23,192 nucleotides of DNA from a bacterium. Lineage in GTDB: Bacteria; Sysuimicrobiota; Sysuimicrobiia; Sysuimicrobiales; Humicultoraceae. The DNA is taken from contig JBGQGY010000048.1 of the NCBI GenBank assembly GCA_041497675.1, forward strand, positions 1 through 23,192, in the 5' to 3' direction. Positions within the stretch are counted from its first letter, which is position 1. Every line of letters starts with the position of its first letter. The notes under the pieces are model-generated. The model had not been told where the DNA came from, searched no databases, and worked only from the letters and a program-made list of their open reading frames with translations. Below, in pieces: positions 4,652-19,651 of this stretch. The position numbers were made by a program, and so were the translations under genes.

Positions 4652-7468
4652 ATGGGAACAGGGCTCATCGAGCGCGCGGAGGAGCTATCAACCCTCACCC
4701 GGTTTCTTGATGACCTGCCCAAAGGGCCTGCCGCCCTCCTGCTGGAGGGAGAGGCCGGCATCGGCAAGACGGCCTTATGGATCGAGGGTTTGCAGGCCTC
4801 CCGGGCGCGCCTCCACACCGTTTTGTCTTGCCGGCCGATCGAATCAGAGACTCAACTGCCCTTCGCCAGCCTCGGCGACGCATTAGAGGGTCTGCCGGAT
4901 TCCGCATTCTCAGATCTCCCCACGCCTCAGCGTCGTGCCTTGGACGCCGCCCTGCTTCGTGCAGAACCGGCCACTGGTTCAACAGAACAGCGCGCGATTG
5001 GGCTGGCTGTGTTGAGTGTGCTAAGGACGTTAGCTTCTTCTTCAGTGGTTGTCGTGGCTGTAGACGATGTGCAATGGGTTGATTCCCCGACAGCTCGGGT
5101 CTTCGAGTTTGCGATCCGTCGCCTGCGGACAGAGCCTGTAGGGGTTCTTGTTGCCCGACGCGGCGGGGGTCAAGACAAACTTCCCTTGATGCTTGCGACC
5201 TTCCCTGCCGAGCGGATGTCGCGGGTGAAGCTGGGACCGCTAAGTGCCGGTGCCCTCAATCGCTTGATCGTGACACGCCTCGGCCTTCAGTTCAGCAGGT
5301 CCACCCTTGTGCGGCTTTACGTCGCAACCGGCGGTAATCCGTTCTTTGCACTCGAACTCGCCCGGGCACTCGCGCGCCAGGGCGCAGAGCCGGCACCGGG
5401 CGAGCCTCTTCCGATTCCCGACAGCCTTGGAGCGGTTGTCGGCCATCGTCTGGCTGAGCTTTCCCCGCTGGCACGCGAGGCTGCCGTTATCGTTGCCGCC
5501 CTTTCGCAGCCAAGCGCTCAGATCATCAAGCTTGCCCTCGGCGACAGCGATACCCTCGGGACGCATGCGGCGTTGAAGGAGACGATCGAGGCCGGAGTTC
5601 TCGAGTCTGAGGGTGATCGTATCCGGTTTTCTCACCCGCTCCTAGCCTCGATTCTCTACCAAGGGCTTCTACCCGAGCAGAGGAGGGAGCTCCACCGTCG
5701 TCTCTCGGCTCTGGTCCCCGATTTGGAAGAGCGGGCACGGCACCTCGCGCTCTCAGCGGAAGGAGCCGACGAGCAGATCGCTGCGGTCCTCGAACAGTCG
5801 GCGCACAGGACGAGGGCTCGGGGGGCGCCCGACTCGGCGGCAGAACTTGCTGAGCGGGCACGCCGTCTGACGCCTCCCGGACTCATCGACAATTGGAGGC
5901 GGCGTGGCATCGAAGCAGCAGACTACCATTTTGCCGCGGGCAATACCGGGCGAGCTGCAGAAATTCTTGAAGAAATCGTCACTTCGACGGCTGCTGGTCC
6001 GGCGCGGGCCCACGTGTTGCGGCGGCTGGCTCTAGTCCGCTATCACAACGGTAAGCGACAGGTTATGGCCGATCTCTTCGAGAGAGCACTCAGCGAAGCC
6101 GGCGACGACTTGCGAACGAAGGCCACCGTGGTGCGAGACCAAGCCTGGCTCAGCCACATGCATGGCCAGGTCGTTTTGGGGAGATCGCTCCTGGAACCCG
6201 CAGTCGAGCTCGCCGGGCGTCTTGAAGACACGGACCTGCTGGCCGAGATGCTTCCCATCCTTGTCTTCTCGCAATCAGCAAACGGCATCCGGGACGAGGC
6301 GACTGTGGAACGCATGCTTGCGCTGGAGTCCCGCACAGGGCAGATTGCGATCATTCATCGTCCTGCGTTCGTTCTTGCTGTCCAAGCGAAGTGGATGTTT
6401 CATCTTTCTGCTGCACGGGAGCAAATGGAGAGCCAATATCGACTTGCTTTGGAGGTGGGGGACTTCGGGTCGCTGCCTTTCCTCCTCTATCACTTGAGCG
6501 AATTAGAGAGTTGGGCCGGAAGATATGAGACGGCCTTGCAGCATGCCGAGGAGGGACATGAAGCAGCCGTCCAGACAGGCCAGGAAACCTCCCGCACGCT
6601 TCTCCTGTACTGTCAGGCGCTCGCCGAGGCACATCTAGGAAGGGTGCACGACGCACGTGTCCACGCAGAAGAAGGCCTTATCTTGGCGGACCGTATCGAC
6701 ATTCCGTTGAGAGCTGTACAGAACCTCACTGCCCTTGGGTTCGTCGCCTTGTCCACACAGAAGTTCGACCGAGCCAGGGAATATCATGATGCGCTCCTGG
6801 CCCGGCAGGTCGCTAGAATGGGGCCTTCACCCCACTTCTTCCACAATGTCATCGAGACACTCGTCGCGCTCGGAAAGTTGGAGCAGGCCGCCGCATTGCT
6901 CGTGGAGTTTGAAGAAGGTCAGCAAGACAAACTTTGGGGTGGGTGGGTGCAGGCTATCGCCCGTCGCTGCCGGGCTCTGCTGGCCTCATCACAGGGCAAG
7001 ATGGACGTCGCGATTGCAGACGCAGAAGATAGCGTCAAGCGTCTCGAGCAGACGGAGGTGCCGTTCGATTTGGCACGTTCTCTGCTCGTTCTCGGGACGG
7101 TGCACCGTCGAAGCAAGCACAAGCGGCAGGCGCGAGAGACGCTGGAACGTGCAGCTCAGCTCTTCGACGATCTGAAGGCTGTGCTCTGGGCTCAAAGAGC
7201 GCGCGCCGAACTTGGCCGCATCGGGGGCCGCGCGGCCACGCGGCGGTCACTCACGGAAACCGAGCGGCGCGTCGCACAGCTAGTCGCCAGTGGGCATACG
7301 AACCGTGAGGTTGCCGACACCCTCTTCCTGGCTGTGAAGACTGTTGAGTGGAACCTCTCCCGCATCTATCAGAAACTTGGTGTCCGGTCGCGCAGTGAAC
7401 TTGCAGCCATGTTAGCGACAGCCTCCATTGCCCCAACGAACACGCTGCCGGATAGGCCGGCAACCTAG
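4652..7468 (+). CDS. Large ATP-binding LuxR-family (LAL/MalT-like) transcriptional regulator: AAA ATPase, helical repeats, C-terminal LuxR HTH
   Basis: Walker A GEAGIGKT, Walker B VAVDDVQWVD, TGGNPFFALEL, FSHPL, C-terminal LTETERRVAQLVASGHTNREVADTLFLAVKTVEWNLSRIYQKLGVRSR. Confidence 0.95.
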   Translation: MGTGLIERAEELSTLTRFLDDLPKGPAALLLEGEAGIGKTALWIEGLQASRARLHTVLSCRPIESETQLPFASLGDALEGLPDSAFSDLPTPQRRALDAALLRAEPATGSTEQRAIGLAVLSVLRTLASSSVVVVAVDDVQWVDSPTARVFEFAIRRLRTEPVGVLVARRGGGQDKLPLMLATFPAERMSRVKLGPLSAGALNRLIVTRLGLQFSRSTLVRLYVATGGNPFFALELARALARQGAEPAPGEPLPIPDSLGAVVGHRLAELSPLAREAAVIVAALSQPSAQIIKLALGDSDTLGTHAALKETIEAGVLESEGDRIRFSHPLLASILYQGLLPEQRRELHRRLSALVPDLEERARHLALSAEGADEQIAAVLEQSAHRTRARGAPDSAAELAERARRLTPPGLIDNWRRRGIEAADYHFAAGNTGRAAEILEEIVTSTAAGPARAHVLRRLALVRYHNGKRQVMADLFERALSEAGDDLRTKATVVRDQAWLSHMHGQVVLGRSLLEPAVELAGRLEDTDLLAEMLPILVFSQSANGIRDEATVERMLALESRTGQIAIIHRPAFVLAVQAKWMFHLSAAREQMESQYRLALEVGDFGSLPFLLYHLSELESWAGRYETALQHAEEGHEAAVQTGQETSRTLLLYCQALAEAHLGRVHDARVHAEEGLILADRIDIPLRAVQNLTALGFVALSTQKFDRAREYHDALLARQVARMGPSPHFFHNVIETLVALGKLEQAAALLVEFEEGQQDKLWGGWVQAIARRCRALLASSQGKMDVAIADAEDSVKRLEQTEVPFDLARSLLVLGTVHRRSKHKRQARETLERAAQLFDDLKAVLWAQRARAELGRIGGRAATRRSLTETERRVAQLVASGHTNREVADTLFLAVKTVEWNLSRIYQKLGVRSRSELAAMLATASIAPTNTLPDRPAT

Positions 7469-7526
7469 GGACTTACTGTTGCGAGAACTCGGTCCGGACC
7501 GAGTTGAGATGTCCGCTGCTTCGAGC

Positions 7527-8330
7527 CTAGCTAACGGGTTTAATCCCCCGGAGGTGCACCGTGTAAATGGGGGACTGCCCACCAAACTGCTCGAACAGCC
7601 ACTGGAGGAACTGCTCGGTGAACAGGGGATAGAGCCCGAGCCGCGCCTTGTCGAGCGGGACCCGCTCGCCGAGGGCCTCGACCTTTTTGAACCCCGCCTT
7701 GTCCATCTTGGCGATCAGCGCCGGCTCCGCCAGCGTGCCGGCGAGTCACCCCGCGTAGGCCGCTTCGTTCTCCAGAACCTCTTTGGGGAGGCAGCCGTCG
7801 ATCACCGAGTCGGCGAAGACGAGGCGGCCACCGGGACGCAGGACGCGGAAGCACTCAGCGAACACCCGGCCCTTCTTCGTGGACAGGTTGATCACTCCGT
7901 TACTGATGACCACATCCGCGCTGGCGTCTGGCAGCGGGATCTCTTCCATCGTGCCGTACACGAACTCAGCGTTGGTCAGACCCATCATCGCCGCGTGGCT
8001 TCGGGCGCGATCAAGCATCCGCTCGGTGAAGTCGATGCCCACGGCGCGACCGGTCGGTCTCACGCGCAGCGCGGCGAGCAACGTGTCGATGCCGCCTCCG
8101 CTGCCGAGATCCAGGACCGTCTCGCCGGATCCTGGGTCCGCGTAGCGAACGGGGTTGCCCATTCCGAGCGCCATCTCACGCACCGGAGCGGGTAGCTGCG
8201 CCAGTTCTTCTGCCGTGTACACGCTGTCGGCGACGCCTGTGCCGGCACCTGGGACGACGGCGCCGTAGGCTTCCCGGACGATGCGCGCCGCGTCCTCGTC
8301 AGTCCATTTGAGGGGTGCTTCCTCGGCCAT
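7527..8330 (-). CDS. ArsM-like class I SAM-dependent methyltransferase, probable selenoprotein (Sec195 at TGA 7748-7746; 267 aa)
   Basis: VLDLGSGGGID, GIDFTERML, DVVISNGVINL, RVLRPGGRL. After TGA the frame reads LAGTLAEPALIAKMDKAGFKKVEALGERVPLDKARLGLYPLFTEQFLQWLFEQFGGQSPIYTVHLRGIKPVS to TAG 7529-7527, which matches the ArsM C-terminus (GC-x-AG...AGF...KP). ATG 8330 follows GAGGTG. Confidence 0.85.
7709..7745 (-). promoter_or_regulatory. Candidate bacterial SECIS element directly 3' of the in-frame UGA
   Basis: mRNA after UGA: CUCGCCGGCACGCUGGCGGAGCCGGCGCUGAUCGCCA. UGGCGG(+14..19)/UCGCCA(+32..37) lower stem, AGC/GCU upper stem, CGGC loop at +23. An alternative 7-bp stem CGCCGGC/GCCGGCG is also possible. 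Folded by eye. Confidence 0.55.
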
Positions 8331-8341
8331 GCCCTTCACCT

Positions 8342-8782
8342 CTACTTGATGGCTTTCAGGGCGTCGTCGAGCATCCCGCCGAGCTTCTTTGCCCCGGTCT
8401 GCGCCGCGGCCAAATCCTTCATACCGAGTACGTTCACGCCCAGCTTCGCGGCGTCTTCCGAAATCTTGAGGGCGGCCGCACCCTTGGCGCCGGCGGTCTT
8501 GAGGTCCTTGAGAGCGCCGTTCCCCTGGCCCTCGCAGACGTTACCCCATTTCTTGTCGAAGCGCCTTTCTGTGGGGCCGACCAGACAGTTGACGGCATGA
8601 CCCGTGTGCTGGTACACGCCATTCAGTGAATCGGACGCCGCCGCGAACCCCGCGTGGGTCTTGGCCGTGTTCAACTCGGCCTTCGCCTGATCCAACGGGC
8701 TCATCGGCGCGGCGCTCGACCTCGTGGAATAGGGAGCCAGGATCAGGGCCAAAGCGGCGAGCGAGATGACGACGATGCGCAT
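8342..8782 (-). CDS. Secreted helical protein with His/Cys motif (H...HxxHxxNC...NxC), function unknown
   Basis: ATG 8782 after GAGGGG; signal peptide MRIVVISLAALALILAP...SSA; KTHAG, QHTGHAVNCLVGP, GNVCEGQGNG; ends 11 nt before the methyltransferase ATG. Confidence 0.8.
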   Translation of the reverse strand: MRIVVISLAALALILAPYSTRSSAAPMSPLDQAKAELNTAKTHAGFAAASDSLNGVYQHTGHAVNCLVGPTERRFDKKWGNVCEGQGNGALKDLKTAGAKGAAALKISEDAAKLGVNVLGMKDLAAAQTGAKKLGGMLDDALKAIK

Positions 8783-8898
8783 ATCAGGTTCACCCCTCGA
8801 CAAACGATCATGTACTTTCTAGAGAGTCATCATAGCAGGTTACGCAGCCGCTCACGATAAAGTTCTCGACAAATACAGCACGGGGCGAGGAGACCAGA

Positions 8899-9384
8899 AT
8901 GGCGACGAAGCAATGGAATGCTCCACCTTCGATGGCGATCGATCCCAAGAAAAAGTACCAGGCCCGGATACAGACCGCGAGGGGCGCGATCACGGTCGAG
9001 CTGCACGTGCAGCATGCGCCGAAAACCGTGAACAACTTCGTGTTCCTGGCGGGTGAGGGGTTCTATGACGGCATCATGTTCCATCGTGTGATCCCCGACT
9101 TCATGATCCAAACCGGCGATCCGACCGGCACGGGGCGCGGGGGGCCCGGGTATCGCTTCGAGGACGAGACGAAAGGGAATCCAGCCCGGCACGAGACAGG
9201 CGTCATCTCCATGGCCAACGCCGGGCCGAACACCAACGGGAGCCAGTTCTTCATCACCCATGCTCCGCAGCCCCATCTGGACGGGAAACATACGGTGTTC
9301 GGGAAAGTCGTCGATGGACAGGATGTCGTGAACGCGATCCGGCAAGGCGATCAATTGACAAAGGTGGAAATCGACGAAGTTTAG
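8899..9384 (+). CDS. ppiB: Cyclophilin-type peptidyl-prolyl cis-trans isomerase
   Basis: [66 protein letters not shown]. ppiA/ppiB naming is ambiguous. Confidence 0.97.
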
Positions 9385-10857: not shown

Positions 10858-10886
10858 AGTCTACTAGATTAGATCAACATGGTCAA
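10858..10886 (-). promoter_or_regulatory. Sigma70-type promoter of the TA operon with a palindromic operator over the -10
   Basis: Minus strand TTGACC (10886-10881) - N17 - TAGACT (10863-10858); palindrome TCTA-C-TAGA at 10860-10868. Confidence 0.75.
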
Positions 10887-11968
10887 GACTGCGCTCCCGC
10901 CAGCCGGTGCCACAAGAGGACAAACTGCTGAATCCACGCGGCCTCCGGCCCCGCCGATTGGGTGAGCGTCCACCAGGTCTGTGGCCGCCCGAGGTGGACA
11001 ACCTTGGGATCGCCCAGAGAGATCCCCGCGAGACCGGCGATCACCCACTTGTGAAACGGCGGCTCCGGAAGGTCGGCCGCCGCCGCCATCGCCTGTCGAA
11101 CCAGTTCGATCAATCGCTCATACCGTGCGTGTTCGTCACCGTAGTATGACACGAGGTTGAGGCGACCCTCCGCTGCGTCGTCGGCCTGATCGGTATACTC
11201 ATCGAGCAACACCTGGAGCCGGCCGATGGCGGACAGATACGCGGCGGCGCACCGGCTGACGGCGAACCGGCCGGGATCCGGCTGGGCGGCGAGCCGAAAC
11301 AAGGCGAACACCCCGAGCGGGGATCCGTACGCAGCGACGGTTTCCGGCCACGTGTGACCCTCATGCGCGAGCTCATGAGACCATCGCTCGAATGCCCGTT
11401 CCGCGTCGCTCTTCGAGTAAGTATGCCTGCGTTCTTGGAAGTCGATCAACAGCTTGGTGACCATGGTGATCGTCGGCGCCACGGCCGCGTAGCCTGCCAT
11501 CTGGGCCACGGCGCCCCGGCACGCGCCCACCAGCGCGCCGAGGTACCCCCCGTCGTCCCTGTGCGGGTGGAAGTCGTAGTAACCGCCTCGGGCGCGCCCG
11601 GGATCCACCGCGTCAAGCAACGCTCCGTGCAGGCGATGATGGTCGTCGGCGTCGAGTTCGTCGGCGGAGTCGCCGATCGTATCGAGATAGTCGGCAATCG
11701 CCTGAAAGGCCACGCTTGCGGTGATCACCGCGTCAGGCGCCTTGAGACCGGTGGCGTACACGGCGGCGCCTTCATAGTGGAAGCGAGCGGCCCGGATGGT
11801 GGTCACCGCCTGGTGCCTGAGGACTGGGTGTGGGATTGCGTGGGCGCGGGGCAGCCAGTACGTCGCCACCTGCCGGCGGCTCTGCATCAACGCGCCGAGC
11901 ACATACATCGCCGAAAGACGCAGAAAGTGGAGGCGGTCGATCGTGAAGAGCCCGGCTTCCTGAAGCAC
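10883..11968 (-). CDS. ytpB: YtpB-like (tetraprenyl-beta-curcumene synthase / DUF2600, class IB) terpene synthase
   Basis: FHYEG, AFQAIADYLDTIGD, YYDF...DDGGYLGALVGAC, GSPLGVF, LQVLLDEYTDQADDAAEGRLNLVSYY, FHKWVIAGL, LGDPKV are colinear with the B. subtilis YtpB motifs as I recall them. Start is uncertain; GTG 11968 chosen, because the track start at 12133 overlaps the divergent ABC gene. Confidence 0.88.
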   Translation of the reverse strand: MLQEAGLFTIDRLHFLRLSAMYVLGALMQSRRQVATYWLPRAHAIPHPVLRHQAVTTIRAARFHYEGAAVYATGLKAPDAVITASVAFQAIADYLDTIGDSADELDADDHHRLHGALLDAVDPGRARGGYYDFHPHRDDGGYLGALVGACRGAVAQMAGYAAVAPTITMVTKLLIDFQERRHTYSKSDAERAFERWSHELAHEGHTWPETVAAYGSPLGVFALFRLAAQPDPGRFAVSRCAAAYLSAIGRLQVLLDEYTDQADDAAEGRLNLVSYYGDEHARYERLIELVRQAMAAAADLPEPPFHKWVIAGLAGISLGDPKVVHLGRPQTWWTLTQSAGPEAAWIQQFVLLWHRLAGAQS

Positions 11969-12071
11969 ACTAATCGAGTTTCTTGTCGCGGGATCGAATT
12001 CCTGTCCTAAGGGTATGGGTGCACGCGCCTCGCAGAGGGGTTCGCTGGCTCGGCTCGAAGCGTGTTGCACG

Positions 12072-12764
12072 ATGTCGGCCGCCCTTGTCCACCTAGAGCG
12101 TGTTTCGCACGTGTTCGAGGCAGGTCTCGTCAAGGCGCTCGGCGACGTGACGCTGACGATTGGTCACCAGGAACTCGTCGCCGTCCTGGGGGCGAGCGGG
12201 AGCGGGAAGTCCACGCTCCTACACGTGTTGTGCGGGTTGCTCGCGCCGACCTCCGGACGCGTCGTGTTTGAAGGGATGGTGCCACCCGGGCAGCGGGCGT
12301 GGGCGCGCCTGCGCGCCACGCGGATCGGGTTCGTGTTCCAATCGATCCACCTGCTGCCCACCTTGACCGCGCTCGAGAACGTCCAGGTGCCCATGTTCGG
12401 CGTCATCAAGCGTGAGACAGATCGCATCAAGCGCGCGGCCGGGCTCCTCGAACGGGTGGGACTGCGCGACCGGATGCGCCATCTTCCCGGCCAGCTTTCG
12501 GGTGGTGAGCGGCAGCGAGCCGCGATTGCCCGGAGTCTTGCCAACACCCCCACGCTCGTGCTCGCCGACGAACCGACCGGCAACCTCGATTCCGAAAGCG
12601 CCGCCGGCGTGCTCGATCTCTTCACAGAGTTGCACGCCACGGAAGGCGTGACGCTTGTCGTGATCACGCACGACCTGGACGTCGCCCGGCGGTGCCGGAG
12701 GTTGGTGCGCGTGGCAGACGGCCGGCTCGTGAGCGACACCATCGTCGAGGGAGCCGGGTCGTGA
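12072..12764 (+). CDS. ABC transporter ATP-binding protein (LolD/MacB-like)
   Basis: GASGSGKS, IGFVFQ, LSGGERQR, LADEPTGNLD, VITHD; ATG 12072 preferred over 12015. Confidence 0.95.
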   Translation: MSAALVHLERVSHVFEAGLVKALGDVTLTIGHQELVAVLGASGSGKSTLLHVLCGLLAPTSGRVVFEGMVPPGQRAWARLRATRIGFVFQSIHLLPTLTALENVQVPMFGVIKRETDRIKRAAGLLERVGLRDRMRHLPGQLSGGERQRAAIARSLANTPTLVLADEPTGNLDSESAAGVLDLFTELHATEGVTLVVITHDLDVARRCRRLVRVADGRLVSDTIVEGAGS

Positions 12765-13882
12765 AGTTTTTGATTCTCCCGGTACGGAACATCACCCGGC
12801 GGCCGATCAGATCAGCGTTGACGGCCGCAGGGATTGCCGTTGCCATTGCCAGCTTCGTCGCCCTGACAGGCATGTCGCGGGCGCTCGAAGGCGGGTGGGT
12901 GCGGAGTCTGGTCGAGCGAGACACGCACCTCATGGGGTTGCGAAAGGGTGCGGTCGAGATCCTCACCACTACACTCGACGAGAACCTGACCGGGCCGATG
13001 AAGCAGGTGAGCGGCGTCAAAGACGTCGCCGGAGAGCTTGTCGATCTGGTCACGCTCCCGACGGGCCAGGCGGTGCTGATGACCGGATGGCCGGCAGGGA
13101 GTTTTCTCTGGCAGACGCTCCCGCTGCGGGACGGTCGCGTGCCGGCCGCCGATGATGAGCGGTGGGTCGTGATCGGGGAACCGATGGCCGCCCACCTGGG
13201 TGTCGGTGTGGGCGACACGCTGTCGATTCGCGGCGCGCCGTTCACGGTGGCCGCGATCTCCAGACCAAAGGCCGTGCTGAACAGACACGCGGTGGTGGCG
13301 CCGCTGCGCGCGATGCAGCGTCTCTTGGATCGACCCGGCCGGGTGACCGTGTTTAACGTGCGGCTCGAACGCCCGGACGATCCCGCGGCGGTGGCCCGCG
13401 CGCGCGCGCAGCTGAGCGTGATGTTTCCGGACGTGACCTTCACCGAGAGCGGAGCCGTTGCCGAGCAAAACGAGATTCTCGGCATGCTGCGCGCCGTCGC
13501 CTGGGGGACGTCGACCATTGCGCTGCTGATGGGGTTGATGGCCGTCCTGAATACGCTGTTGATGGCGGTCACTGAGCGAAGCCGGGAGATCGCGTTGCTG
13601 TCGGCCATGGGGTGGCCGCAAGCACGCGTCCTCTGGTTGATCCTGCTCGAAGGGCTCGTGCTTGCGCTGGTGGGGTCGGGTGTGGGCGCGGCGCTCGGCC
13701 TCGGCGCGCTCCAGGGTATCAGCCGGCACCCGAGCATGCGGGCGTTCCTGGAAATCCAGGTTGGCCCCAGGGTGATCTGGGAGGTCGTGGCGGCCGGCGT
13801 CGCGTTGGGCGGGTTGGGCGGGTTGTATCCGGCCTGGCGGGCCGTCCGGCAGCCGCCCGCCGAGGTTCTCCAGCGCGAATGA
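12761..13882 (+). CDS. ABC transporter permease (FtsX/MacB/LolE-like)
   Basis: GTGA overlap with the ATPase stop; RNITRRPIRSALTAAGIAVA, extracytoplasmic domain, NTLLMAVTERSREIALLSAMGW, GLYPAWRA. Confidence 0.93.
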   Translation: MKFLILPVRNITRRPIRSALTAAGIAVAIASFVALTGMSRALEGGWVRSLVERDTHLMGLRKGAVEILTTTLDENLTGPMKQVSGVKDVAGELVDLVTLPTGQAVLMTGWPAGSFLWQTLPLRDGRVPAADDERWVVIGEPMAAHLGVGVGDTLSIRGAPFTVAAISRPKAVLNRHAVVAPLRAMQRLLDRPGRVTVFNVRLERPDDPAAVARARAQLSVMFPDVTFTESGAVAEQNEILGMLRAVAWGTSTIALLMGLMAVLNTLLMAVTERSREIALLSAMGWPQARVLWLILLEGLVLALVGSGVGAALGLGALQGISRHPSMRAFLEIQVGPRVIWEVVAAGVALGGLGGLYPAWRAVRQPPAEVLQRE

Positions 13883-13883
13883 C

Positions 13884-14546
13884 ATGCACTCATATCTGGT
13901 GACCAGCCTGTTCCTGACGGCACTCTGTCTGGCCGGTCTCTGGCTCGTCCCGCGGCATCGGACGCCCGCTCTGCTCAGCGCGGTGCTCGGCGTTCCTGGC
14001 GCCGCGTACTCGCTCGTCTTTGTGCCCACGTATTGGAATCCCGTCCGGATCCTCGCGCTGCCAATTGGCATCGAAGACGTGCTGTTCTCCTTTGCCAACG
14101 GCGGGCTCGTGTGGCTCCTCGTGGCCGTCTGGACACCCGGCATCCGGGTGAGCATCGACGCGGCGACAGTGGCGAAGCGATGGCTGGCGGTGACGGCGGC
14201 TTTTACGCTGCTGCTGGTCGTCATCGCGCGCGCGGGCGTTCCCGTGATGCATGCCGGTCTGGTCGGCGCCGCCGTCATTTTTGGAGCGCTGCTTTGGCTT
14301 TGCCCCGCATACTGGCCGCTCGCTGTGCGGGGCGCGATCGCCTTCACCATTCTCTACGGAGCGATCCTGTTCGGGAGCCTGCAGCTCTGGCCGGGCGCGC
14401 TGTCCCAGTGGAACACACGGGTGCTGAGCGGGATCGTGTTTCTCGGTGCGCCGGTCGAAGAGGTGGTCTGGGCGCTGGCGTACGGCGCACTCTATCCCGT
14501 CGTGATGGCGTTCTTCCTCGACGCGCGCATGTCTCACCGCCGGTAG
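13884..14546 (+). CDS. Polytopic membrane protein with two lycopene-cyclase (CrtYc/Yd-type)-like repeats
   Basis: About 7 hydrophobic segments; two repeats W-N...(P/G)-x-E-(D/E)-V-x-(F/W): YWNP...IGIEDVLFSF and QWNT...GAPVEEVVWAL; starts 1 nt after the permease stop. Confidence 0.7.
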   Translation: MHSYLVTSLFLTALCLAGLWLVPRHRTPALLSAVLGVPGAAYSLVFVPTYWNPVRILALPIGIEDVLFSFANGGLVWLLVAVWTPGIRVSIDAATVAKRWLAVTAAFTLLLVVIARAGVPVMHAGLVGAAVIFGALLWLCPAYWPLAVRGAIAFTILYGAILFGSLQLWPGALSQWNTRVLSGIVFLGAPVEEVVWALAYGALYPVVMAFFLDARMSHRR

Positions 14547-15889
14547 GCGACCCGCCAGATCGTGTTGTTGCCGTCCTCCGTGACAAGCAGCGAACCGTCG
14601 CGCATCACGGCCACGCCGACCGGGCGTCCCCACACGCTGTTGGCGTCCGCCACGAACCCCGTCAGAAAATCCTCATAGACGCCCGTCGCGCGGCCATCGC
14701 GCACGATCACGCGGACCACCTTGTACCCCGTCCGCGTTTCACGGTTCCATGACCCGTGGAGCGTCACGAAAGCGTCGCCCCGATATTCCGCGGGAAACTG
14801 ATTGCCGTCGTAGAAGACGATCCCCAGCGTCGCAGAGTGAGCCTGGATCAACACGTCGGGCACCGTGACGGCGCCCCGCAGATCGGGACGGGCACCCCTG
14901 AGCCGCGGGTCTTCGTTGGCGCCGATGTAGTACCAGGGCCATCCGTAGAACGCGTCTTGCTGGACACGCGTGGCGTAGTCGGGCGGTACGTTGTCACCGA
15001 GATGGTCGCGCTCATTCACCACACACCAGAGGCTGCCGGTCCCCGGCTGAATGGTCACGCCCGAACAGTTGCGGAGTCCTGTCGCATAGTTCCGAATCTG
15101 GCGCCCATCCGGATCAAACACCCGGACCACGGCGCGATTCTCCTCACTGCCCCACGCGGCGCCGCGGCCGTGCGTGGCCTCGAAGGTCCGAATGTCCTCT
15201 GCGCTGCGGGATGCCAGTCCCCCGGCGACGTTTGATGCCGATCCCACGGCGACGAACAGCCGGCTCCCGTCGGGCGCGACGGCGAGGTCGCGCGTCCAAT
15301 GTCCGGAGGCTGGGATGTTGGCGATGATGACCTGCGCGGGCCCGCTCGCCTTCAGATCGCCGTTGGTGTACGGGTATCGGACGACCTGGTGCGTTTCGCC
15401 CACGTAGACGAAGCGCGGGTTGTCGGCGGGGTGGAACGCGATCCCGTACGGCCTTGATAGATTTTCCGCGAAGATCTCCTGCTGCGCGGGTCTGGCGGCG
15501 CCATCGGGGGCGCGGAGAACGCGAATGCGGCCGGCGCCGCTCTCCGCGACAAAGATATCGCCGTTGGGGGCGCGACGAACGACGCGTGGCACGCTAAGCC
15601 CGGTGGCGTAGACATCCACGGTAAACCCGGCGGGTACGCGCGGTGAGGTGTTTTCAGGACGCTGGACAACTCTGGGACCCGCCCGCACATCGGCATTTTC
15701 GGCTTCGGTCGCGTTCTTGGGTGGCGGGAGGTCGTTCGGGCTGATGTGACGCTGCACTCCCGGAGCGTCGGTTCGCCAGTCCCCAAAGGCGGTCGTTCCG
15801 GTGCGGATCTGAGCATCGGACGTCATGGTGAGCAGCACCACGCTCAGGGCCACCATGCACGCGAGCACATACACAAGCGAATTGCGCAT
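14534..15889 (-). CDS. Exported PQQ-dependent sugar / L-sorbosone dehydrogenase family beta-propeller protein
   Basis: Signal peptide; APNGDIFVAE, HWTR, VGSASN, GLRN, NERD, YGWPWYY, HGSWNR, GRPVGV; AGGAGG RBS before ATG 15889. Confidence 0.9.
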   Translation of the reverse strand: MRNSLVYVLACMVALSVVLLTMTSDAQIRTGTTAFGDWRTDAPGVQRHISPNDLPPPKNATEAENADVRAGPRVVQRPENTSPRVPAGFTVDVYATGLSVPRVVRRAPNGDIFVAESGAGRIRVLRAPDGAARPAQQEIFAENLSRPYGIAFHPADNPRFVYVGETHQVVRYPYTNGDLKASGPAQVIIANIPASGHWTRDLAVAPDGSRLFVAVGSASNVAGGLASRSAEDIRTFEATHGRGAAWGSEENRAVVRVFDPDGRQIRNYATGLRNCSGVTIQPGTGSLWCVVNERDHLGDNVPPDYATRVQQDAFYGWPWYYIGANEDPRLRGARPDLRGAVTVPDVLIQAHSATLGIVFYDGNQFPAEYRGDAFVTLHGSWNRETRTGYKVVRVIVRDGRATGVYEDFLTGFVADANSVWGRPVGVAVMRDGSLLVTEDGNNTIWRVAYRR

Positions 15890-15902
15890 TGGAGTTCGCC
15901 TC

Positions 15903-17129
15903 CTACCGTGCAGTCTCTCGGGCACCCTGCGCCCGGCGCATCAGCGCTGCGCCGGTCAGCGTACACAGTGCCGAGATCGTCAGGATGACTTTGGAACCCA
16001 CCACGGGGAGAAGCAGGCCGCTCAATATCGGCGCGATCACACCGCGTACGCCGACCAGCGTATTGTAGATGGCCACGTAGTGGCGGATTTGGCCAATCGG
16101 CGCGTATTGGAAGACACCCTGCAGCCAGCCCAGGTCGATGCCCGCTGAGGTGAGGCCGTCCGTCACCCCCGCTGCCAGCGCCATCCACGGCGTGGTGGCG
16201 ACCAGGTAGATCAACGGCGTCATGGTGCCGACTACGAAGACCGGGACCACGGCGTGGGTGGCCGGCCTGCGATCCATGAGCCGTCCCCAGTAATAGTAGG
16301 CGACGATCGCGGTCGCGGAGGTCGTCGCACCGAGCAGGCCGACCTGGAAGTTGCTCGCGTGGAGCACGTCGACCAGCAGGATGGGTATGACGGGCGCCAT
16401 GAGCCAGACGCCAAATCCAAACACGAAGAACCCGGCGAGAAACCGCAAAAAGGGACGATCGGTCCGCAGGAGGTGCCAGGTGTCCGTGAGGGTGCTCGGC
16501 GCCTGCCCTGTGTCGGACACTCGCATCTGCTTGAGCATGAACGGGCTGATGATGCCGAAGAGCGCGGCAGCCGCGAACACCCATTGAAACGGCACTTCTT
16601 GCAGGACGCGCCCGCCGACAAAGGCCGTCACCGCCCAGACGAGGGCCATCCACGCGCGCACGAACGCCACGATTCGAGCGCGGACCTCTTGCGGGTACGC
16701 CTCGCGGATCACCTGGGCGTACGCGAGACTGCCGATCGAGGTGACGGTGTACTGCAGAAGAATCAGGCCCACATAGGGTTCCGGCGCGTGGACCAGCGGC
16801 AACAGCAACAAGAGCCCCCGCCCGGCGACCTGCGTGCGGATGATCATGTGCAGGGAGGGCGTGCGGTGAATGGCGTTGGCCCACCAGAGCGAGCCAAGCA
16901 GGCCAATCGAGGGAGCCGCGACGAGCAGCGAGACTTCTAGCGGCGAGGCACCGAGGCGTCGGCCCATGACGGGCACAAACGGGACAGTGAGGCCGGCGAA
17001 GACCCCAAAGAGGATTGCCGCTGTGAGATCCGCCTTGACGCTCGGTCGAATCGCGGGAGGCACCCACCGGAGAACGCGATCCCACACGGTCAGCGCACGA
17101 TCACGACCGCGGCCGCCTGCGTCCTTCAT
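15903..17129 (-). CDS. MFS transporter
   Basis: About 12 hydrophobic segments, WGRLMDRR motif-A-like loop. The start may be a slightly downstream GTG near the upstream gene's stop. Confidence 0.88.
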   Translation of the reverse strand: MKDAGGRGRDRALTVWDRVLRWVPPAIRPSVKADLTAAILFGVFAGLTVPFVPVMGRRLGASPLEVSLLVAAPSIGLLGSLWWANAIHRTPSLHMIIRTQVAGRGLLLLLPLVHAPEPYVGLILLQYTVTSIGSLAYAQVIREAYPQEVRARIVAFVRAWMALVWAVTAFVGGRVLQEVPFQWVFAAAALFGIISPFMLKQMRVSDTGQAPSTLTDTWHLLRTDRPFLRFLAGFFVFGFGVWLMAPVIPILLVDVLHASNFQVGLLGATTSATAIVAYYYWGRLMDRRPATHAVVPVFVVGTMTPLIYLVATTPWMALAAGVTDGLTSAGIDLGWLQGVFQYAPIGQIRHYVAIYNTLVGVRGVIAPILSGLLLPVVGSKVILTISALCTLTGAALMRRAQGARETAR

Positions 17130-18345
17130 GGGTGAGCGTCAACGTGAGGAGGCTTCCCGGCACCGGCAGCAGGCTCACCACCGTCAAGACCGGGATAATC
17201 CCAAAAATCTGGGCCAGCGCGCCCACCGTCCCGACCAGCAGACCACCCATGCCCATCCCCAGGCCCATCATCAGCCCCGCGGCCGTGCTCGCGTGGGTCG
17301 GAAGCAGGCTTTGTGCCTCCACGGTGACAAGCGAGGACGAACCGAACAGGGCGCCGCCCCCCAGCGCCAGCAGGACGATCGACGCCGGCCCGGTGCCGAG
17401 AATCCCTCCTAGGAAGAACGGCGTGGCGAGGAGGAACGAGACGAACAACACCCGCCGCCGGCCATAGCGATCAGACAGATACCCCGCCGCCATGCCGCCC
17501 AGGGCCCCGGCAAAGACCATCGCCGTGATCGCCGCCGCGCCCGTGGTCGCAGGTGCGCCGCGTGCCCGATACAGGAACGGCAGCAGCGCCAGCATGCACT
17601 GGACAACCAGCGAACGCGACAAGACGAGACCCATCAGCCGGATCAACCCGCGGCGGTTCTGACGCAGGGCCGACCGCAGGCTCTCCGGGCTTCCCGAGGC
17701 GCCCGCTCGCTGCGGCGTGCGCAGGTGCCAGGGGACGGCCCGCAGCAGGACGAGGGCCATGATCAACCCGGGGATCGCGGTCACGGCTACCCACGGCAGC
17801 CCGGCGCGCACTGCGATGTACGCGGCGATGAGCGGGCTCAGGGCCTGTCCGGTCTGGCCCGCCATGATGTACGTCGCAAACCGAGTGCCCTTACGCTCGC
17901 CCGAGAGTTGGTGCACCAGCCCGGCCGACTGTGGATGGAACGCGGCGATGCCGAAACCATAAAGGAGGCTCAGGAACGCGAGCGCCGAGTATGATGGCGC
18001 CACGCCGAGCAGCGAGGAACCCAGCACCGTGCTGGCGAGTCCCACCACGGCGACCGAGCGGAGCCGCGCGCTGTCGGCGAGATACCCGAACACGGGTTGC
18101 AGGATCGATCCGCTGATCGTGGAGATCGACACCAGCAGGCCGGCCTGCGCGAGGCTGAAGTGGTGGGCGTCGGCCAGAAGCGGAAGCAGCGCGTTGAGGA
18201 AGTTGACGTACAGGTCGTTGGCAAAGTGCGCAAACATCAACCAGCCAAGCGCACCCGATGCCGCGATCAGGGGCGCCGCGGATGTCGCGGATCTCTCCAG
18301 GGATGCCGCCCCCGCGGGGTTGGCGCTGTCGGTATCGAATCCCAT
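17101..18345 (-). CDS. MFS transporter, Fsr (fosmidomycin-resistance)-like
   Basis: HFANDLY...LLPLL, LQPVFGYLAD, GIAAFHPQS, GYLSDRYGRR. Confidence 0.9.
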   Translation of the reverse strand: MGFDTDSANPAGAASLERSATSAAPLIAASGALGWLMFAHFANDLYVNFLNALLPLLADAHHFSLAQAGLLVSISTISGSILQPVFGYLADSARLRSVAVVGLASTVLGSSLLGVAPSYSALAFLSLLYGFGIAAFHPQSAGLVHQLSGERKGTRFATYIMAGQTGQALSPLIAAYIAVRAGLPWVAVTAIPGLIMALVLLRAVPWHLRTPQRAGASGSPESLRSALRQNRRGLIRLMGLVLSRSLVVQCMLALLPFLYRARGAPATTGAAAITAMVFAGALGGMAAGYLSDRYGRRRVLFVSFLLATPFFLGGILGTGPASIVLLALGGGALFGSSSLVTVEAQSLLPTHASTAAGLMMGLGMGMGGLLVGTVGALAQIFGIIPVLTVVSLLPVPGSLLTLTLTHEGRRRPRS

Positions 18346-18430
18346 AGACGTCTACTCTGATCTCTTCTGCGCGGGGTCACCCTCTCTCCTTGGGGATACT
18401 GTGCGGATCGTCGGGAGGTTGTGTCGTCGC

Positions 18431-19651
18431 ATGATCACCTTCGACCATTTGCTTACGGCGCCGTCGTTCTTTCAGAATCCCTATCCGACGTATGATCTCA
18501 TGCGCGAGCAGGCGCCGGTCGTTCGGAGCGAGGCCTGGGGTGGATGGGTGCTGACGAGGTACGCGGACGTGGTCGCCACCCTGCGCGATCACCGGCGTTT
18601 CTCAAACAAAGGTCGAGTCGACCACATGTTGGCTCACGTGCCTGAACACGCGCGGGCTGAGGCCGGCACCCTCGAGGCGCACTTTGCCGCCAACCTGGCG
18701 CACGCCGACCCACCGGATCACACGCGCATGCGCGCGCTGCTCAATCGCGCGTTTACACCCCGGCAAATGGAGAAGATGGTACCGCGCGTGCAGGCCGTCG
18801 TCGACGCGCTGCTCGATCGTGTGGACGCGCGTGGGGACGGCCGGATGGACGTGATCGCCGACCTGTCCTTCCCGCTGCCGGCCACCATTATCGCTGAGAT
18901 GATCGGCGCGCCGGGCGACGACAGCATGCAGTTCCAGGACTGGGCGAACGGCGTGAACCAGTTATTCAGCAGTGTGGGCCGCGCGACGGCGGGACAGGTC
19001 GCGACGGCCCAGCAGCACGTGGAGGGTATTCGCGCCTACACGCTGCAGCTTGCCCATCGCCGCCGCGACGAACCGCAGGACGACCTGATGACGATGCTGA
19101 TGGAGGCCGTGAATCAGGGGACCCTCAGCCTGGACGAGCTCGTCTCGACCGTTGTCACACTGTTCATCGCCGGGCATGAGACGACGACCTACACGCTGGC
19201 GAACGGCGTCCTGGCCCTGCTGCGTCACCCTACGCAGCTTGACCTGCTGCGCGCGCATCCGGACCTGATGGAATCTGCGGTCGAGGAGATCTGGCGGTAC
19301 GATACGCCGGTCCAGCGCGGTTGGAAACTCGCGACTGAGGATGCCGAGATCGACGGACACGGCATCCGAGCAGGCGAGCTCGTCCTGCCCATGCCGGGCG
19401 CCGCCAATCGCGACCCGGCGCAGTTTCCGGAACCTGCCCGGTTCGACGTGACGCGCAAGGATAACCGCCACGTGGCGTTCGGATATGGCATTCACTTTTG
19501 TATTGGCGCGCCGCTCGCCCGCGTTGAGGTCCCGGTCGCCCTGGCAAGCCTCCTGCGGCGGTACCCCGATCTCCATCTGGCCACGGACGCGCTCGAGTGG
19601 CGACATGATGTCGCTATGAGGGGGCCCGTTCGATTGGAGCTGCGTTACTAG
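18431..19651 (+). CDS. Cytochrome P450 (bacterial, CYP107/BioI-like)
   Basis: [14 protein letters not shown]-helix AGHETT, EEIWR (ExxR), ANRDP, heme motif [16 protein letters not shown] before ATG 18431. The track start at 18029 overlaps the MFS gene and is spurious. Confidence 0.96.

Follow-up and report, generated by a model that had tools for sequence, protein, structure and literature searches.

The stretch of DNA considered here, which we call the window, is the 23,192-nucleotide (nt) segment at positions 1 to 23,192 of contig JBGQGY010000048.1 (GenBank assembly GCA_041497675.1), from a bacterium of the Humicultoraceae in the Sysuimicrobiota. On its minus strand, at 7527..8330, lies a gene of 267 codons related to the arsenite methyltransferases ArsM/AS3MT, which use S-adenosylmethionine (SAM). 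It runs from an ATG at 8330..8328, a start that agrees with the N-termini of close homologues in alignments, to a TAG at 7529..7527, provided that an in-frame TGA at 7748..7746 (codon 195) is translated as selenocysteine (Sec, U); under translation table 11 the open reading frame (ORF) ends at this TGA (7746), leaving 194-197 amino acids (aa). The TGA lies in the motif AYAG-U-LAG, of the UxxG type, at the column of Cys224 in CmArsM. Further landmarks on the same strand are the codons of Met57 (8162..8160) in LGMGNP (residues 55-60), at the CmArsM Cys72 column, of Gly145 (7898..7896) in ISNGVINL (residues 142-149), at the Cys174 column, and of Cys180 (7793..7791) in IDGCLP, 15 residues ahead of U195. 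The glycine-rich SAM-binding motif VLDLGSGGGID (residues 72-82) is encoded at 8085..8117, and the coding region after the TGA spans 7530..7745 (72 residues, with a helix at 202-212 and strands at 215-225 and 255-263). The gene product is a full-length 267-aa selenoprotein that shows the ArsM fold and has its SAM site intact. Within the ArsM family it falls into a large clade whose members have V, L or M in place of Cys72, Gly in place of Cys174 and no N-terminal Cys, and retain at the Cys224 column either Cys or, often, Sec.

The original prediction for this locus, made from the letters alone, had pointed to LGMGNP, ISNGVINL, the Cys of IDGCLP and a Sec 15 residues further on, all of which are present on the minus strand, and had taken the first two motifs as sites of replaced ArsM cysteines. 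Alignment by HMMER to solved structures (CrArsM 5evj, E 1.7e-27; CmArsM 4fr0/4kw7, E 5.6e-21) places these motifs on the ArsM Cys columns: Met57 pairs with the Cys of WGCGNP in CrArsM (5evj) and of YGCGS in CmArsM (4kw7), Gly145 with the Cys of ISNCVINL/ISNCVCNL, and U195 with the Cys of GECLAG/GECLGG. In CmArsM numbering, Cys72, Cys174 and Cys224 are the conserved arsenite ligands and Cys44 is a fourth cysteine, as set out in the cited part of PMC5552862, according to which arsM surveys require at least three of the four. The window protein has no Cys upstream of residue 160, so that the N-terminal (Cys44) column is empty too and only one of the four columns is filled, by Sec; the loss thus extends to three of four columns, beyond the two replacements first noticed. 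The best NCBIfam match is the arsenite methyltransferase family NF008823, at 217.8 bits, under its curated cut-off of 263, while Pfam returns generic SAM-methyltransferase domains only (Methyltransf_31, E 2.5e-30). When 32 rows of the clade were compared with 52 canonical ArsM rows, the Cys174 column was G in 31 of the former and C in all of the latter, and outside the Cys columns consistent differences were confined to positions 54 (A vs S), 62 (R vs A) and 128 (M vs I).

The fold is predicted to be that of ArsM throughout the read-through protein, as a structure prediction, one of the checks put forward with the original prediction, indicates. An AlphaFold2 model built on a 101-row alignment (P0001 denotes the first 266 residues of the window protein with C for U) has a mean predicted local distance difference test score (pLDDT) of 96.2 and a predicted template modelling score (pTM) of 0.93 over the whole read-through length, with the segment after the TGA supplying core strands at pLDDT 94-98. 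Foldseek against the PDB places CmArsM (4fr0/6cx6) and CrArsM (5evj) at the top, with E about 1e-18 and TMq 0.70-0.75, and the first 11 matches are all ArsM entries (TMq 0.65-0.75). The GxGxG SAM motif is invariant in alignments, where D74, G76, G78, G80 and D82 never vary.

That the TGA is read as Sec appears very probable indeed. Among the 120 best-matching clusters of a large protein database, 113 end in ...EAA[YFW]AG, that is, at the residue before the Sec column, and are stored as proteins of 158-199 aa (except P0066, with 227 aa). The other seven are full-length (264-290 aa), all with LGVGNP and ISNGVIN, and the five of them included in the alignment have Cys at the U column. Beyond the TGA, 71 residues of the window protein find the post-Cys part of these Cys-form homologues by BLASTP (E 6e-08 for P0114, 8e-08 for P0126), with which they share the motif LYPLFT. 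Since TGA is the ordinary stop in seven of the 17 other window genes, and codon 195 is the only in-frame TGA among 18 ORFs, a reassigned genetic code is excluded. A scan of a genome collection returned 80 loci, six of them of the clade type. The codon at the column is TGA in five of these six and TGC in the other, alignment continues past it in every case, and in the five TGA-bearing loci, which come from different phyla, the frame beyond the TGA is open and alignable. ArsM-type proteins with Sec at this column (UxxG) already figure as a selenoprotein family in the cited sections of PMC13188914 and PMC9312934.

The RNA just downstream gives a less clear-cut picture. Within 7719..7743 (minus strand) a predicted hairpin, CGCUGGC-GGA-GCCGGCG (7735..7719), starts 11 nt after the UGA and competes with a longer stem, CGCCGGC...GCCGGCG (7743..7719). 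A selenocysteine insertion sequence (SECIS) stem-loop is expected at a set spacing just 3' of the UGA. Hairpins 5-13 nt after the UGA are found in the window, in the five clade-a Sec loci and in a paralogue, L005_b (see below), while L004_b has only short, weak stems. The L005 locus carries the hairpin of the window with paired changes (G-C to A-U, U-G to U-A); in the remaining four clade-a Sec loci the stem is 8-9 bp long and closes a CGUGU loop, a structure that is the minimum free energy fold in two of them. Several observations count against decoding as Sec: hairpin energies are no better than those of shuffled sequences in the window (z -0.30 and -0.36; best elsewhere -2.1), no tRNA gene, and thus no tRNA-Sec, lies in the 23-kb window, and Pfam scans of the window ORFs find no selA, selB or selD family. 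An Rfam scan of the window at gathering thresholds returned nothing, and no bacterial SECIS model matched. Since the sequence is GC-rich and its folding energies resemble those of shuffles, the hairpin fits a SECIS but is not proof of one.

How widespread the loss of cysteines is was gauged by scoring the 150 best representatives from a library of 1.84 billion proteins at the Cys72, Cys174 and Cys224 columns. All three are Cys in 123 representatives, 13 have other or incomplete patterns, and 14 have non-Cys residues at both of the first two columns (V/G/C in five, V/G/stop in four, L/G/stop in three, V/G/gap and V/A/stop in one each). The eight representatives that end at the Sec column all fall among these 14 and none among the 136 others, and the genome loci agree, with TGA at the column in five of six clade loci vs none of 74 canonical ones. 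The three-column type of the window is not a product of chance, recurring in 113 of the 120 closest clusters, 14 of the 150 representatives and six of the 80 genome loci. At the Cys72 column the 113 close relatives have L (82) or M (31), and more distant members of the clade have V. In a quick maximum-likelihood tree of 86 rows, the clade of the window (32 rows) has a Shimodaira-Hasegawa-like approximate likelihood ratio test (SH-aLRT) support of 95 and is nested among canonical sequences; inside it, 21 Sec rows (one uncertain) and 11 Cys rows are related by at least seven Sec/Cys switches. A phylogeny scored at the Cys columns had been proposed with the original prediction, and it shows the loss to be clade-wide, so the rewiring, as far as alignments and trees can tell, is old and conserved and not a private mutation. 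Three close relatives, P0052, P0056 and P0096, read ICNGVINL, with a Cys two residues ahead of the canonical ArsM position.

The claim that Sec is the only conserved nucleophile holds, with 39 of the 113 close relatives having no Cys at all before the TGA. A conserved pairing of Cys180 with Sec, by contrast with what the note of a Cys 15 residues ahead might lead one to expect, does not survive the survey: this column is C in 68 of the 113 close relatives (T in 21, A in 10, S in seven, Q in four, R in two, M in one) and mostly D, E or P in more distant members. Since Cys180 is not conserved, the family is not defined by a pair of Cys and Sec, and from these alignments Cys180 is a lineage-specific feature.

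A second ArsM-like gene lies directly 3' of the first in two of the related loci, L004 (2881-3717) and L005 (4723-5487). These paralogues read FAGVGNP, ISNGVINL and W-T-G/A-U, with an in-frame TGA at the Cys224 column. A search with the paralogue uncovers a very large, mostly actinobacterial group, to which the cultured Blastococcus deserti belongs and in which JGI or UniRef give many members the label 'arsenite methyltransferase'; among 120 matches, the three columns are V/G/C in 115, V/G/stop in two, V/G/W in two and V/G/L in one. Since a single base change separates TGG from TGA and from TGC, the W/L copies, of which one with W comes from Blastococcus deserti, may have decayed or taken on another use. 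Two independent losses of cysteines, suggested by a quick tree that split the paralogues off, were considered and set aside: the approximately unbiased (AU) test did not reject a single clade (p-AU 0.76), and the tree constrained to one V/G clade is better by 15.7 log-likelihood units. The cysteines are therefore taken to have been lost possibly only once, before a duplication.

Immediately upstream of the methyltransferase gene, an ORF of 153 aa (8342..8803, minus strand; TAG stop at 8344..8342) has a hydrophobic, signal-like N-terminus and two cysteines, and matches none of the families in Pfam or NCBIfam. From its end to the methyltransferase start there are 11 nt, and its TAG overlaps GAGGTGA, which reads as a ribosome-binding-like site 5 nt before the ATG; because of this overlap both genes are probably co-transcribed, judging by their layout. 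On the other side, the methyltransferase gene converges on a gene for a LuxR-type AAA/TPR regulator. A terminator scan found no convincing terminator for the methyltransferase gene. Between the two convergent genes, at 7486-7505, lies a perfect 20-nt palindrome, AACTCGGTCCGGACCGAGTT, which is a candidate bidirectional terminator hairpin with no T-run and a fold no better than that of shuffles.

The other neighbours in the window encode a cyclophilin, a class A beta-lactamase-family protein, a DUF2600 protein, an ATP-binding cassette (ABC) transporter, a lycopene-cyclase-domain protein, a sorbosone-dehydrogenase-like protein, two major facilitator superfamily (MFS) transporters, a cytochrome P450 (P450), a GGDEF-EAL protein, a PAP2 protein and an FAD/BBE oxidase. 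The run at 10883-19651, with DUF2600, an ABC ATPase with FtsX permease, the lycopene-cyclase-domain membrane protein, the sorbosone-dehydrogenase-like protein, the two MFS transporters and the P450, possibly forms a small cluster for a terpenoid or other secondary metabolite. Pfam scans of 17 further window ORFs identified no ArsR, ArsB/Acr3, ArsC, ArsA, ArsD or ArsH family, and scans of neighbours in six related genome loci found no ars genes either, so that the earlier observation of a neighbourhood free of ars genes extends from the window to its relatives.

These six loci, from Actinomycetota, Chloroflexota, Deferrimicrobiaceae and one unclassified bacterium, hold genes at 39-53% identity, the closest relative in the genome scan being at no more than 53%. 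In all six, a gene of about 80 codons for an RsrA-like protein (H-x3-C-x2-CC) lies directly upstream of the methyltransferase gene. The three of these six anti-sigma genes that were scanned all match the RsrA model TIGR03988, at 39.9-47.9 bits, and the anti-sigma gene is preceded by an extracytoplasmic function (ECF) sigma factor in all four loci scanned (TIGR02937, 66-79 bits, cut-off 42.9). A riboswitch upstream of the relatives' start codons was considered and discarded: Rfam found none, and the conserved stretch there is the small anti-sigma gene in another frame. Among the relatives, a TusA domain is fused to the Cys-form P0138 (29.0 bits, cut-off 28.6), and P0142 shows a weaker match of this kind, short of the cut-off at 20.4 bits; L032 has a C-terminal extension like that of the TusA-fused forms, and P0136 carries a cupin. 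In these relatives, the upstream pair of an ECF sigma factor with a zinc anti-sigma factor of RsrA-like type points towards a role in the response to thiol stress or to a thiophilic toxicant, and the sigma/anti-sigma and TusA context of the relatives, read from gene order and domain matches, suggests thiol-redox biology. As separate observations, L003 contains tandem c-di-GMP-I-GGC riboswitch aptamers at 4680-4759 and 4846-4925 on the plus strand (73.9 and 71.1 bits, cut-off 59), which precede small ORFs of no known family about 3 kb before the sigma/anti-sigma/methyltransferase module, and L005 has, in the same locus as its two Sec methyltransferases, an ORF with a UGSC-family domain, a family listed among selenoproteins (7533-8945, minus strand).

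On balance we lean, with limited confidence, towards reading the window protein as a one-ligand SAM methyltransferase, which would hold a soft substrate by a single Se bond, and not as a classical As(III) enzyme. The methyl group would pass from SAM to a soft, thiophilic atom sitting beside the SAM methyl, and the substrate would be held by a single Se-X (or S-X) bond, vs the two- or three-thiolate clamp with which ArsM holds inorganic As(III). With a single protein ligand, the enzyme would most likely act on species that need only one, and candidate substrates are (i) already-alkylated arsenicals such as dimethylarsenite and (ii) sulfur, selenium or tellurium species. The reductive and resolving chemistry of the lost cysteines would be supplied in trans, possibly by a low-molecular-weight thiol, by Cys180 in this lineage or by fused or neighbouring thiol proteins in relatives, and Sec would offer tighter binding together with an easily resolved selenenyl-sulfide. 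The methyl-Sec intermediate and the other substrates put forward in the original prediction are speculative.

Pushed further, this line of thought would make the V/L/M-Gly-Cys/Sec clade a distinct class of ArsM-derived enzymes, in which the one remaining selenolate or thiolate binds a monovalent soft species covalently and presents it to SAM, the selenenyl-sulfide is resolved by an external thiol and the system is under RsrA-type induction in many bacteria. The species so bound might be dimethylarsenite, or else a sulfane or selenium atom that a TusA-like carrier delivers, and Sec would be favoured because it is the only ligand left. Taken as a whole, this extension is tentative and rather less than even in our estimation.

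The one-ligand reading has a number of facts to contend with. The substrate is deduced only from what is missing, and since only columns 54, 62 and 128 differ consistently outside the Cys columns, the pocket may still serve arsenic. The residue at the Sec/Cys column is W or L in three of the 120 members of the paralogue group (P0274, P0278 and P0287), which makes it dispensable in a few lineages. As for the link with thiol stress, the sigma/anti-sigma context is found only in relatives at 39-53% identity, the window having a 153-aa secreted-looking neighbour instead; the anti-sigma matches are below the TIGR03988 cut-off of 62.5; and the CMD/AhpD-like neighbour in L003 is weak (21.2 bits vs a cut-off of 23).

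Among the alternatives, a serious one, although it looks unlikely, is that the protein is still an arsenite methyltransferase, to which As(III) would arrive as a thiol conjugate (with glutathione, mycothiol or similar) and remain attached to these small thiols, with Sec as the one protein ligand and the small thiols doing the reductions for which ArsM uses the lost cysteines. The ArsM fold, the near-identical pocket and the fact that NF008823 is the best family match are all in keeping with it. So is the enzyme of Thermus thermophilus, which, with a single Cys, is reported in the cited part of PMC8649762 to make mainly dimethylated arsenic (DMAs) from As(III), a result that tells against the one-ligand reading as well; a two-cysteine ArsM is cited in the same portion of that paper. 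However, the window protein scores below the NF008823 cut-off, an entire old clade lacks both cysteines, against 123 of 150 representatives with all three in place, the gene has no ars neighbours either in the window or at the six related loci, and the Thermus enzyme, as described there, is evolutionarily distant and keeps a different Cys plus two histidines. The view of the original prediction that this is probably not a classical arsenite methyltransferase is therefore upheld in part: the clade-wide loss of cysteines, the 217.8 bits against 263 and the lack of ars genes in the scanned neighbourhoods speak for it, but with the single-Cys Thermus enzyme (PMC8649762, in the part cited) and an almost unchanged pocket, methylation of As(III) may still be within reach of the protein.

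Similarly improbable, to our mind, is a chalcogen methyltransferase that would methylate sulfide, selenide, methanethiol, methylselenol, or a persulfide or perselenide carried by Sec/Cys or TusA, as detoxification under thiol stress. It would make sense of the TusA fused to P0138 (with the weaker match in P0142 and the similar extension of L032) and of the RsrA-like redox anti-sigma gene upstream in six of six loci, with an ECF sigma factor in four of four scanned, and it would have counterparts in other Rossmann families, where methyltransferases of H2S and methanethiol (MeSH) induced by oxidative stress are reported (MddM1 and MddM2, in the cited part of PMC12904073; MddH, in that of PMC11445057). 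Yet these Mdd enzymes, set apart here by their description in that part of PMC12904073, fall into the UbiG/UbiE family, have 204-210 aa and are not of the ArsM type, and the window gene has neither a TusA fusion nor a sigma pair. Since sulfide or a thiol, as a free acceptor, does not have to be bound covalently by the protein, the strict conservation of Cys/Sec would also be left unexplained unless this residue carries the substrate. Finally, that the TGA is a true stop and the product a 194-aa truncated, inactive or regulatory fragment is highly improbable, for however well it suits the short public annotations of the 113 close relatives (158-199 aa, one of 227), the lack of Sec machinery in the window and the weak hairpin statistics, the stop would fall exactly on the catalytic Cys column, where Sec and Cys alternate at least seven times in the clade, and would be followed by 72 further open codons that are homologous to Cys-form C-termini (as in all five TGA loci, from different phyla) and supply core strands of the model at pLDDT 94-98.

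Whatever the substrate, this is a large family without a name of its own, and its members are routinely mis-annotated. The database entries of all 113 close relatives stop at the Sec codon, and a whole clade of selenoproteins is therefore invisible as such; surveys of arsM either drop the clade, by the rule of at least three of four cysteines, or admit it by domain matches; and the JGI label 'arsenite methyltransferase' on many members counts as arsenic methylation potential, when the enzymes probably do something else. The clade is a natural experiment in which the multi-thiol clamp of ArsM has been cut to one ligand, and the concentration of Sec in it (all eight Sec forms of the 150 representatives; five of six loci vs none of 74) suggests a testable reason for the selection of Sec. 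The link with an RsrA-like redox switch suggests an undescribed methylation branch of the thiol-stress response. Full-text searches aimed at this family and at related topics, supplements and Haft and Tolstoy 2025 (the paper behind the nearest NCBIfam selenoprotein families, which may have a bearing here) aside, turned up no account of an ArsM-like clade that lacks the Cys72 and Cys174 columns and has Sec at Cys224; papers on the tellurite/selenite methyltransferase of Aromatoleum and on arsenic methyltransferases of Stenotrophomonas contain nothing on the family of the window protein, and the main text of the BSepDB paper makes no mention of methyltransferases.

Several known systems bear comparison with the window protein. 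MddH, MddM1 and MddM2 are cytosolic SAM methyltransferases of Rossmann fold whose substrates are soft chalcogen nucleophiles, and MddM is induced by oxidative stress, which makes them a model of how the window protein might work, but in the cited part of PMC12904073 they are of the UbiE/UbiG families, 204-210 aa long and with no reported catalytic Cys or Sec, which makes the analogy functional only; MddM1 and MddM2 were set aside as candidates for the same family on the grounds of this UbiG/UbiE type and size. TtArsM of Thermus thermophilus, compared here by its description in the cited part of PMC8649762 only, is a SAM methyltransferase for which methylation of As(III) with one cysteine is reported, and therefore the full cysteine triad may be dispensable; it differs in being described as distant from known ArsM, in relying on C77 aided by two histidines and in not being a selenoprotein.

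The comparison also takes in the UxxG ArsM-type selenoproteins (NF041537, ArsM/AhpD; NF041536, ArsM/DUF2284; NF047649, methyltransferase/UXPK-star), which have the same Sec column, the same UxxG motif (ULAG), an ArsM-like domain and the same history of mis-annotation as truncated proteins. The window protein scores well below the cut-offs of all three (169.4 of 510, 150.5 of 575 and 160.4 of 460 bits, respectively), and unlike them has a single Sec, a C-terminus reading GIKPVS and no AhpD, DUF2284 or UXPK part. As for ArsM/AS3MT itself (CmArsM 4FR0/4FSD/6CX6; CrArsM 5EVJ; NF008823), the window protein has the same fold at 30-33% identity, the same SAM motif, the same GNP and SN-VINL frames and its nucleophile at the same Cys224 column. 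It departs from these enzymes in being below the NF008823 cut-off, in the lack of an ars neighbourhood, in having, at 267 aa, no algal C-terminal domain and no N-terminal Cys, and in the replacement of Cys72 by Met, of Cys174 by Gly and of Cys224 by Sec.

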